Shown in pieces: positions 2,337 through 5,216 of a DNA stretch of 5,216 bases. Source of the stretch: a virus (Duplodnaviria > Heunggongvirae > Uroviricota > Caudoviricetes); the IMG/VR virus record IMGVR_UViG_2740892258_000012, one strand, 5' to 3'. The notes beneath the pieces were generated by a model. That model was not told where the DNA came from and made no database searches. It saw only the letters and a list, made by a program, of their open reading frames with translations. The position numbers and the translations under genes were made by a program. Within the stretch, counting starts at the first letter, position 1. Every line of letters begins with the position of its first letter.

Positions 2337-2630
2337 ATGGGTAAAGGAAGCAGTAAGGGGCATACCCCGCGCGAAGCGAGGGACAACCTGAAGTCCACGC
2401 AGCTGCTGAGTGTGATCGATGCCATCAGCGAAGGGCCGGTTGAAGGTCCGGTGGACGGATTAAAAAGCGTGCTGCTGAACAGTACGCCGGTGCTGGACAG
2501 TGAGGGGAATACCTCAGTGATTTCTGCTCGGCGATGCGCTGTATGCCGGTATGGAACGGGCAGACGCTGACGTTCGTGCAGGACCGACCGTCGGATAAGG
2601 TGTGGACCTATAACCGCAGTAATGTGGTAG
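2337..2630 (+). pseudogene. J: Tail tip/host-specificity protein J remnant (lambda gpJ-like), internally deleted and frameshifted
   Basis: Nt 2337 to about 2510 encode MGKGSSKGHTPREARDNLKSTQLLSVIDAISEGPVEGPVDGLKSVLLNSTPVLDSEGNT, matching the lambda gpJ N-terminus. From about 2513 a different frame (+1 shift) encodes LSDFCSAMRCMPVWNGQTLTFVQDRPSDKVWTYNRSNVV, which matches an internal gpJ segment several hundred residues further in. The start-codon frame stops at TGA 2568-2570. Well over 90 percent of a normal J gene (about 1100 codons) is missing. Confidence 0.85.
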
Positions 2631-2862
2631 GACGCTACGACAGCACAAAAAGGAATTGTCCAGCTCAGTAGTGCAACCAACAGCACATCTGAAATGCTGG
2701 CGGCAACGCCAAAGTCGGTAAAGGCAGCCTATGACCTTGCTAACGGGAAATATACTGCTCAGGACGCTACGACAGCACAAAAAGGAATTGTCCAGCTCAG
2801 TAGTGCAACCAACAGCGCATCTGAAACGCTTGCCGCGACACCGAAAGCAGTGAAAGCAGCTA
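2631..2862 (+). repeat. Two tandem 132-nt (44-codon) repeat units at the 5' end of the stf fragment
   Basis: Unit 1 (2631-2762) and unit 2 (2763-2862 onward) both encode [18 protein letters not shown](T/A)SE(M/T)LAATPK(S/A)VKAA. Their first ~68 nt differ at only two positions, while the next ~30 nt carry many synonymous differences. Confidence 0.85.
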
Positions 2863-4097
2863 ATAATAATGCGAATGGTCGGGTACCTTCTGCCCGTAAG
2901 GTGAATGGTAAGGCGCTTTCAGCGGATATAACACTGACGCCGAAAGATATTGGTACGCTTAACTCAACAACAATGTCATTCAGCGGTGGTGCTGGTTGGT
3001 TCAAATTAGCAACGGTAACCATGCCACAGGCGAGTTCTGTTGTTTCAATTACGTTGATTGGTGGTGCGGGATTTAACGTGGGGTCACCTCAACAGGCAGG
3101 TATATCTGAACTTGTTTTGCGTGCAGGTAATGGTAATCCGAAGGGGATTACTGGTGCTTTATGGCAGCGCACATCGACAGGGTTTACAAATTTTGCCTGG
3201 GTCAATACATCTGGTGATACTTACGATATTTACGTTGCAATCGGAAATTATGCGACTGGTGTAAATATTCAATGGGATTATACCAGTAATGCCAGCGTGA
3301 CGATTCATACGTCACCAGCATATTCTGCTAATAAGCCGGAAGGGTTAACGGACGGTACAGTTTATTCACTCTATACGCCATCAGAGCAGTTTTATCCGCC
3401 TGGCGCACCAATCCCGTGGCCATCAGATACCGTTCCGTCTGGCTATGCCCTGATGCAGGGGCAGACTTTTGACAAATCTGCATACCCGAAACTTGCAGCC
3501 GCTTATCCGTCAGGCGTGATCCCTGATATGCGTGGCTGGACGATTAAGGGCAAACCCGCCAGTGGTCGTGCCGTATTGTCTCAGGAACAGGACGGCATTA
3601 AATCGCACACCCACAGCGCCAGCGCATCCAGTACGGATTTGGGGACGAAAAACACATCGTCGTTTGATTACGGAACCAAATCCACGAATAACACCGGGGC
3701 GCATACGCACAGTCTGAGTGGCTCTACGGGGTCTGCCGGTGATCATACTCATGGTAATGGTATTCGTTGGCCAGGAGGCGGCGGTTCTGCGTTAGCATTT
3801 TATGATGGCGGTGGGTTCACTTATGTCCAGGATTCACAGTATCAAGTAAGCCCGGGGACTTCTTCCCGTAGATCGTATTATCAACGTATTCAGACACAGT
3901 CAGCAGGTGCTCATACCCACTCGCTGTCTGGTACTGCAGCAAGTTCTGGCGCACATGCACATACTGTAGGTATTGGTGCGCATACGCACTCCGTTGCGAT
4001 TGGTTCACATGGACACACCATCACCGTTAACGCTGCTGGTAACGCGGAAAACACCGTCAAAAACATCGCATTTAACTATATTGTGAGGCTTGCATAA
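2694..4097 (+). CDS. stf: Side tail fibre protein Stf, C-terminal portion (N-terminally truncated); homology runs upstream to nt 2631
   Basis: The 467-aa ORF ends ...[24 protein letters not shown], the characteristic lambda Stf C-terminus, and carries the conserved [71 protein letters not shown] block and multiple GAH(T/A)HS motifs. The same frame is open from 2631, directly after the J remnant and a TAG at 2628-2630, so the first in-frame ATG at 2694 is at best a fortuitous restart. The N-terminal tail-attachment region of Stf is absent. Confidence 0.85.
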
Positions 4098-4672
4098 TGG
4101 CATTCAGAATGAGTGAACAAGCACGGACCATAAAAATTTATAATCTGCTGGCCGGAACTAATGAATTTATTGGTGAAGGTGACGCATATATTCCGCCTCA
4201 TACAGGTCTGCCAGCAAACAGTACCGATATTGCACCACCAGATATTCCTGCTGGCTTTGTGGCTGTTTTCAACAGTGATGAGGCATCGTGGCATCTCGTT
4301 GAAGACCATCGGGGTAAAACGGTTTATGACGTAGCGTCAGGGGACGAGTTATTTATTTCTGAACTCGGTCCGTTACCGGAAAATGTTACCTGGTTATCGC
4401 CGGAAGGGGAGTTTCAGAAGTGGAACGGCACAGCCTGGGTGAAGGATACGGAAGCAGAAAAAATGTTCCGGATCCGGGAGGCGGAAGAAACAAAAAACAA
4501 CCTGATGCAGGTAGCCAGTGAGCATATTGCGCCGCTTCAGGATGCTGCAGATCTGGAAATTGCAACGGAGGAAGAAACCTCATTGCTGGAAGCCTGGAAA
4601 AAGTATCGGGTGTTGCTGAACCGTGTTGATACATCAACTGCACCTGATATTGAGTGGCCTACGAGAAGGTAA
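4097..4672 (+). CDS. tfa: Tail fibre assembly protein Tfa (lambda Tfa-like), 191 aa, with a variant 3' end
   Basis: ATG at 4097 overlaps the stf stop (TAATG). The product [121 protein letters not shown]... matches lambda Tfa closely. The final residues ...DIEWPTRR* differ from the ...[11 protein letters not shown] ending encoded by the downstream duplicate. Confidence 0.9.
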
Positions 4673-4793
4673 AACATGGAAATGGAATCAAATTGACCAT
4701 GTAACGCCGCGGGATAAGGTTCAAAAACATCATGGCTAATTTTATGTTTAATTTTTGATTCCCCAGCCCTTGTAGATGCCGCGTTCAGGCTAG

Positions 4794-4931
4794 CTTCGTT
4801 CAAATCCATTAAAGATATCAGACTACTCTCCGTTGCTGGAGGCATGGAATAAATATCGGGTATTGTTGAATCGTGTTGATACATCAACTGCACCTGATAT
4901 TGAGTGGCCTGCAAATCCTGTCAGGGAGTAA
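4794..4931 (+). pseudogene. Degenerate duplicate of the tfa 3' end (last ~33 codons), same orientation
   Basis: Nt 4833-4910 are about 91 percent identical to nt 4583-4660 of tfa (7 mismatches in 78, last 41 nt identical). The frame reads ...[33 protein letters not shown] with stop at 4929-4931. It is bounded upstream by an in-frame TAG at 4791-4793 and has no start codon or upstream tfa body. Confidence 0.8.
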
Positions 4932-5045
4932 TCATTGGGATTATGCCGCAGACACGTCGTATGCAGGAACGTGCTGCGGTTAGTTTGTGAGCTTTCGATA
5001 GTGGTTGTTATTTTTGCCCTTATTTGTTCCGGAGGCCATGGTTCA

Positions 5046-5216
5046 ATGGTCCGTCTGCCCCCTGTGGTGATGTCAGCAAAATCAGTCACTGCGCGAACCA
5101 CAATAGCCCGGGAAGATGCTGAAGATCACCAGGTAAAGCTATCAGCGCAGAAACTGGAAGAACTGCTCGCATCAATGGTTAAGGATGAGGTTGATCGCAA
5201 TGATGGGATTTATTGA
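5046..5216 (+). CDS. Hypothetical small protein (56 aa from the RBS-supported ATG; in-frame ORF extends to 4935)
   Basis: GGAGG at 5031-5035 lies 10 nt upstream of ATG 5046. The ORF encodes MVRLPPVVMSAKSVTARTTIAREDAEDHQVKLSAQKLEELLASMVKDEVDRNDGIY and stops at TGA 5214-5216, exactly at the window edge. The C-terminal half is charged and probably helical. I recognise no homolog. The longer 93-aa version from 4935 has a Cys/Val-rich N-terminus of poor coding plausibility. Confidence 0.4.
   Translation: MVRLPPVVMSAKSVTARTTIAREDAEDHQVKLSAQKLEELLASMVKDEVDRNDGIY

Follow-up and report, generated by a model that had tools for sequence, protein, structure and literature searches.

The question raised by this locus is why a tail-fibre chaperone gene (tfa) appears to end twice on the same strand, with two different C-termini, on either side of a segment of about 170 bp. 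The window, i.e., the whole 5,216-nt stretch of DNA that was analysed, corresponds to bases 3-5218 of the 8,724-bp contig CVOH01000073.1 of the draft assembly GCA_001245225.1. As described in the sequence-only reading, a direct repeat of 78 nt was found at 4583-4660 and 4833-4910, in the same orientation and with 71 of 78 positions identical (repeat family D2). The identical stretch at its 3' end was also found, but with a length of 39 nt (4622-4660 = 4872-4910) instead of the 41 nt given earlier, and chance is excluded by a wide margin for an exact repeat of 39 nt in 5.2 kb. The two different endings are likewise present in the sequence: the ORF at 4097-4672 (+) encodes 191 aa with the C-terminus ...DIEWPTRR*, and the ORF at 4833-4931 (+), with 32 codons and its stop codon at 4929-4931, carries the downstream copy. 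The features of the repeat region are as follows:

4097-4672, plus strand: tfa ORF, genuine up to 4663/4664, with the Pfam domain PF02413 (Caudo_TAP)
4583-4660, plus strand: repeat copy 1, the 3' end of the intact tfa, with the exact 39-nt core at 4622-4660
4664-4830, minus strand: internal 167-nt piece of a ybcY-type class I SAM-dependent methyltransferase gene (residues 68-122 of 217/218)
4831-4931, plus strand: 3' end of a tfaX-like tfa remnant, with repeat copy 2 at 4833-4910
4945-4979, plus strand: terminator-like hairpin just 3' of the copy-2 stop (fold of -24.1 kcal/mol, z of -3.2)

The identity of the first copy was evaluated against the Caudo_TAP profile (PF02413), which the window ORF (4097-4669) matched with a score of 149.1 bits and an E-value of 9.7e-44 over profile positions 1-128 of 131, so that its C-terminal domain places it among the tfa genes of the lambda Tfa type. 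Copy 2 is not a complete gene; it has 32 codons in the window and is partial, with the N-terminus missing, in RefSeq. The 89-aa remnant ORF found in relatives covers only positions 75-130 of PF02413, and the first two thirds of tfa are lacking from copy 2 in every relative. Both copies were also matched by an Rfam model, IS009 (RF02111), with the following results:

4440-4638, plus strand: full-length IS009 match, 223.8 bits against a gathering score of 117
4809-4888: partial IS009 match on copy 2, 48.3 bits, under the threshold

On the strength of these matches, the repeats might be regarded as two copies of a small-RNA gene and not as coding leftovers, which is very improbable, given that the full-length match lies wholly inside, and in frame with, the ORF that scores 149 bits to Caudo_TAP, and that the match of copy 2 is confined to the unstructured 3' third of the model. 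The 'sRNA family' IS009 appears to model conserved tfa coding sequence.

The segment between the copies (4661-4832), formerly described as having no obvious coding capacity and an unknown origin, proved to be coding sequence of a known type. Bases 4664-4830 were found to be 99.4-100% identical to the interior of a 669-bp opposite-strand gene, to which 14 phage records and thousands of E. coli genomes give the annotation class I SAM-dependent methyltransferase or 'YbcY'. Complete identity was observed with the prophage of E. coli O104:H4 (L001 4926-5092) and with 7 phage records, always inside the full-length gene. When 4666-4830 was translated on the minus strand, 54 of 55 aa were identical to residues 68-122 of the 217-aa protein of relatives, which matches the Pfam families Methyltransf_12/23/25; no specific name was obtained from NCBIfam, where the matches were weak and far under the cut-offs. 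No full-length methyltransferase ORF is present in the window, which holds only 167 nt of the gene, and the absence of the remaining parts is attributed to an assembly effect, not to biology. The last codons of the 191-aa ORF (AGA AGG TAA) are also antisense methyltransferase sequence, and the ending PTRR* arises because the tfa ORF runs across the join into this sequence. Two other interpretations of the spacer were set aside. The ACG at 4661-4663 was ruled out as the filler of an illegitimate junction, ...CCTACGAACCC being the natural continuation of tfa in phage 2G7b and in the 100%-identical relatives, and a Hin/Gin/Pin-type crossover site (GGTTCAAAAAC motif) was dropped, since the spacer is internal methyltransferase coding sequence.

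The contig was then compared with the intact prophage of a close relative (L017), with the following result for each of its segments:

1-1315: 92% identity only, and 97% to a Qin-like prophage of another strain; ~1.1 kb (part of L, K) then absent
1316-2513: 100% identity; 837 bp then skipped
2513-2628: 100% identity; ~4.9 kb then skipped
2630-4664: 100% identity (2,035/2,035); 357-358 bp then skipped
4664-4830: 2 mismatches in 167 nt; 441 bp then skipped
4831 to the contig end: 1 mismatch and 1 gap over 3,893 nt

Measured on the prophage of the relatives, the skips between the segments of the contig range from 0.36 to 4.9 kb. The two skips on either side of the spacer are:

4663/4664, join 1 (no strand): ~358 bp missing, from the last 20 nt of tfa through its terminator hairpin into the 3' portion of the methyltransferase gene
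4830/4831, join 2 (no strand): 441 bp missing, from the 5' portion of the methyltransferase gene across the intergenic region into the beginning of the tfa remnant

The string across join 1 was without a match in 5,426 complete E. coli genomes, the GTDB representatives (a weak scan, with one genome per species), IMG/VR and the JGI metagenomes, and that across join 2 was without a match in IMG/VR. None of the joins of the window was found in any complete E. coli genome. When looked for in independent assemblies of near-identical genomes, the joins were absent, and the flank-identical relatives were intact. The Tfa of the window and a further fusion protein upstream (L-I, see below) are each on record in CVOH01000073.1 only. 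The proposal of an alternative Tfa C-terminus could not be maintained, as the join that creates PTRR* was found in a single draft contig and the relatives that are identical up to the join end in PTNPVRE*. Both the PTRR* ending and the 170-bp spacer are, judging from these comparisons, almost certainly artefacts of short-read draft assembly.

The arrangement expected at this locus is known from the relatives. Across the gene collection, 201 blocks contain an identical copy of the 467-aa Stf ORF of the window, at the ompW/yciE-trp locus and on contigs longer than 200 kb, the largest of several hundred kb. The relatives with this identical Stf have a Tfa of 194 aa ending in ...EWPTNPVRE*, a methyltransferase of 218 aa and a tfa remnant of 89 aa, and their 39-nt cores are 1,049 bp apart, as against 250 bp in the window. 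The true direct repeat, as determined by alignment, is about 225 bp long, comprising the last ~156 nt of tfa and ~70 nt downstream that include the hairpin after the stop, and the two ~225-bp repeats that bracket the methyltransferase cassette are 87-92% identical. The copy-1 counterpart of the hairpin at 4945-4979 was found in L017 (-28.5 kcal/mol, z of -5.8) and falls in the segment absent from the window. The same order was observed in the O104:H4 prophage (L001), at the ompW'/yciE-yciF-yciG-trpA locus, with tfa (+), methyltransferase (-), partial tfa (+) and a DUF4376 remnant. Among complete E. coli genomes, a tfa end, the 167-nt island and a tfa end were found in this order in 2,686 of 5,426, with a median of 2 matching places per genome. 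An earlier caveat, that intact phages might show the same arrangement as a conserved feature with a functional second gene, was borne out: intact phages share the layout as a conserved feature, with a functional gene between the repeats, although this gene is a methyltransferase and not a second tfa.

The closest annotated counterpart is the DLP12 prophage of E. coli K-12 MG1655 (b0561-b0563), in which tfaD (+), ybcY on the opposite strand and tfaX, a short tfa-derived ORF, follow one another; the 39-nt core lies within tfaD and the 3' end of copy 1 is almost identical. An opposite-strand ybcY-type gene between two same-strand tfa 3' ends was also found at the present locus, the window itself holding only an internal fragment of that gene. 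In DLP12, however, the annotation gives ybcY as a pseudogene, most of the tail region is deleted, with tfaD as its remnant, and the sequence of tfaX departs past ...RVDTS, whereas copy 2 at the locus of the window keeps the full end. The sequences downstream also differ, with appY-ompT in DLP12 and the DUF4376 remnant at the ompW/yciE-trp locus. The duplication is an arrangement of the tfaD-ybcY-tfaX type, already annotated in K-12, and nothing about it is new here. Similarly, the phages 2G7b, ev243, PhiR26_1, PhiR29/30/49, Kati and Turner carry a 222-aa methyltransferase gene with tfa-derived sequence on both sides, and this gene contains the 167-nt island at 99.4-100% identity. In 2G7b (L002 3040-4160), unlike the present locus, no more than 120 nt of the tfa 3' end are present on the left, preceded by an unrelated fibre gene and an ORF for a small membrane protein, and the right flank is a frameshifted tfaX-type fragment; the cassette accordingly moves with its tfa flanks. 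In Kati (L007 1354-4383), tfa and the methyltransferase gene are separated by a DNA invertase gene and some eight very small ORFs, which suggests that the cassette can adjoin an invertible-fibre system or the remnant of one.

The invertase of Kati, placed just after tfa, and the pinQ gene found after tfaQ in a Qin-like prophage show that related tail-fibre loci can carry invertases, and the 39-nt core could accordingly be imagined as the dedicated site of a recombinase, forming a shufflon-like or invertible switch (as in Mu G, P1 C and e14 P) with switchable Tfa C-termini. This can hardly be entertained for the present locus. The copies are direct, and no inverted repeat involves 4583-4931; no recombinase or serine invertase ORF was found in the window, between the two copies of the relatives or from tfa to yciE in the relatives. 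In addition, the core is conserved coding sequence that occurs as a single copy in loci without a second tfa end, and copy 2 is without the first two thirds of tfa in every relative.

For the short form found in the contig, the ends of its segments were examined. The two mismatches of the island with its cognate copy, at 4720 and 4774, are each located exactly 56 nt from an island end. The next segment starts at 4831; the copy-2 tfa remnant first departs from the DLP12/2G7b-type tfaX copy at 4887, exactly 56 nt further on. Further upstream, a 116-nt island from gene J ends at 2628, 56 nt past the paralogue-variable base 2572, and the segment that precedes it ends 56 nt past the paralogue-variable base 2456. 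The segment that follows opens with a repeat of the same length:

2629-2684, plus strand: opening 56 nt of the stf segment, directly after the join 2628/2629 and recurring without change at 2761-2816

This repeat is an internal witness of k-1 = 56. An exact 56-nt run in a paralogous copy was found at 6 of the 10 internal segment ends, for a 56-nt background of 1.04% per position and direction (binomial P = 2.5e-10, or 1.7e-6 when corrected for all run lengths), and no other run length was common to more than two segment ends, trivial island lengths aside. An assembly collapse or expansion, which the sequence-only reading had itself named as a finding that would overturn it, is what this 56-nt signature points to.

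The second cassette copy was represented by proxies from other genomes, which at k=57 reproduced the segment ends 12329, 12495 and 12937 (L017 coordinates) and failed for the left end near 11971 (L017) and for the 1315/1316 join. Four of the ten segment ends (1315, 1316, the start at 2513 and the end at 4663) were matched by no proxy, the nearest proxies giving runs of 60 and 63 nt for the 4663 end. The pattern is similar to that of the repeat-collapse and misjoin errors of short-read de Bruijn assembly, in which ends lie k-1 from the bases that distinguish paralogues and segments from different prophages form chimeras, and differs from these errors in that the nodes are here joined bluntly, without Ns. 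Standard de Bruijn assemblers place Ns between scaffolded nodes and do not produce blunt joins. Since the blunt joins are unlike this standard output, an additional post-processing step must be assumed, and a literature search on CVOH01 for the assembler used gave no relevant match. Also against an artefact, a skip of 4.9 kb is hard for short inserts to bridge.

The alternative is a real short form, produced by two illegitimate deletions (~358 and 441 bp) that left a 167-bp piece and a new PTRR* end behind, as part of a wider decay that also deleted K, most of J and lom, among others. In its favour, deletion is a usual way for cryptic prophages to decay, the joins show microhomology of 0-1 nt and contain no Ns, and the four segment ends just mentioned are left unexplained by the k-mer model. 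A deletion origin is nevertheless improbable. All five joins are confined to one 8.7-kb draft contig while flank-identical relatives are intact, and there is no biological reason for six endpoints to lie exactly 56 nt from paralogue-variable bases. Deletion also does not account for an island that departs from its cognate copy at 2 of 167 nt between near-identical flanks, or for a leftmost segment that comes from a different prophage type. The contig is chimeric in this sense, with 2 mismatches in the 167 nt of the island, 0 in the 2,035 nt of the left flank and 1 mismatch and 1 gap in the 3,893 nt of the right flank.

Taken from the sequence comparisons, the locus very probably has the known layout of tfa, ybcY-type methyltransferase and tfa', compressed by mis-assembly. 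An intact tfa (+) would be followed by an opposite-strand methyltransferase moron (an extra prophage gene) and then by a tfaX-like 3' remnant, each tfa end having its own terminator hairpin, so that the cassette would be bracketed by direct repeats. The remnant would be the leftover of an earlier tfa after exchange of the tail-fibre module, and the two copies, as the comparison of alleles suggests, still recombine, with deletion of the cassette or conversion of patches as possible outcomes. The contig, for its part, would consist of unique k=57 de Bruijn nodes strung together, with omission of the nodes common to other prophage copies; those omitted here would be shared with a second tfa-ybcY-tfaX cassette elsewhere in the genome; most E. 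coli carry such a second cassette, at the median of two matching places per genome given above. The 167-nt spacer would then represent the one node that differs between two methyltransferase copies (a k=57 'bubble' over 4720 and 4774), and the core-to-core distance would thereby shrink from ~1049 bp to 250 bp.

Recombination between the tfa copies was studied by comparison of alleles. In strain EFF60 (L008 3526-3720), the same locus is without the cassette, and copy 1 runs up to ...CCTACGAACC and is followed by downstream sequence of the copy-2 type, a hybrid allele with its crossover within a 37-nt identical stretch. In O104:H4, copy 1 (L001 4526-4640) contains a short conversion patch of the copy-2 type (GCAAAT). 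Alleles with and without the methyltransferase cassette therefore coexist at the same chromosomal locus (L001/L017 versus L008). The diverged copies, the hybrid of L008 and the patch of L001 bear out the earlier suggestion of a recombination footprint between tfa alleles or fibre modules. Mosaicism of tail-fibre and chaperone modules among lambda, P2, Mu, P1 and related phages was reportedly described by Haggard-Ljungquist et al. (1992), Sandmeier (1994) and Hendrix and Duda (1992). The present case resembles it in that the conserved C-terminal coding sequence of tfa serves as shared homology for swaps, with partial copies left behind; it differs in that a tandem direct partial copy brackets a moron, and in being known from allele comparison. 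The duplication is a textbook outcome of exchanging tail-fibre modules at the conserved end of tfa. A methyltransferase moron bracketed by recombining tfa repeats is a clear and unsurprising instance of lambdoid mosaicism, with an annotated example in E. coli K-12.

What is left of mild interest would seem to be only the role of the tfa-plus-terminator repeats as homology arms for the gain and loss of the moron, as seen with L008, L001 and 2G7b. It is tentatively suggested, with somewhat less than even confidence, that the ~225-bp repeats of tfa 3' end and terminator may be portable homology arms for the methyltransferase moron, acting through ordinary homologous recombination. If true, the moron could be gained or lost at any tail-fibre locus that shares the conserved tfa end, and this would explain the presence of the cassette behind unrelated fibre genes (2G7b), the alleles with and without the cassette, and the converted patches.

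For the interpretation of drafts in general, the locus is a reminder that the tail-fibre regions of genomes with several prophages assemble badly from short reads. Where such a draft shows a blunt 'deletion', a fusion ORF or a novel protein end, the feature should be checked against k-mer offsets and close relatives before it is given a biological meaning.

Two further features of the window belong to its other joins:

1315/1316 (no strand): H-M-L' segment joined to the start of gene I, giving a false L-I fusion ORF at 1004-1858
2513-2628, plus strand: island of 116 nt out of the central part of gene J, with 837 bp skipped before it and ~4.9 kb after it

The L-I fusion appears as a protein of 284 aa, with the N-terminus of tail protein L and the C-terminus of I. 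Its left part (1-1315) matches a Qin-like prophage of another strain at 97% and the cognate prophage at only 90-92%, and the right part, which starts with the GTG of gene I, is 100% cognate; very likely, this fusion too results from a false join. Between I and J, at 1932-2314, an AT-rich insert was observed (GC of 0.33-0.40, with ~0.55 around it), which encodes a small putative lipoprotein (MNKTILFCTIIALTGC...) and ends in a strong terminator-like hairpin at 2294-2314. The relatives keep this insert, as does O104:H4, with the annotation 'hypothetical protein' in the latter, and it looks like a classic moron. At 2337-2628, the start of J (first ~59 codons) runs directly into the 116-nt piece, which belongs 837 bp further along in J, and stf comes next; the ~4.9 kb of the relatives' sequence absent after the island comprises the rest of J, lom and a 245-aa opposite-strand ORF. 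The stf gene opens with 132-bp repeat units, 2629-2746 and 2761-2878 being 83% identical over 118 nt, with the first 56 nt exact. The scaffolds of relatives have Ns directly upstream of the homologous stf point (in L017 up to 9936), which indicates that other short-read assemblies also fail at this repeat stretch.

In the C-terminal part of the side tail fibre, at 3696-3989, repeated GAHTHS / HxH motifs were found (family D3: 3696-3710, 3906-3920 and 3975-3989), which recall the histidine-rich repeats of other phage fibre tips. Downstream of copy 2, 4935-5216 (contig L003 5048-5218) corresponds to a remnant that the annotation of relatives gives as a DUF4376 pseudogene, interrupted by an internal stop. 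Beyond the window, a truncated ompW forms the right attachment border of the prophage and is followed by yciE-yciF-yciG-trpAB.
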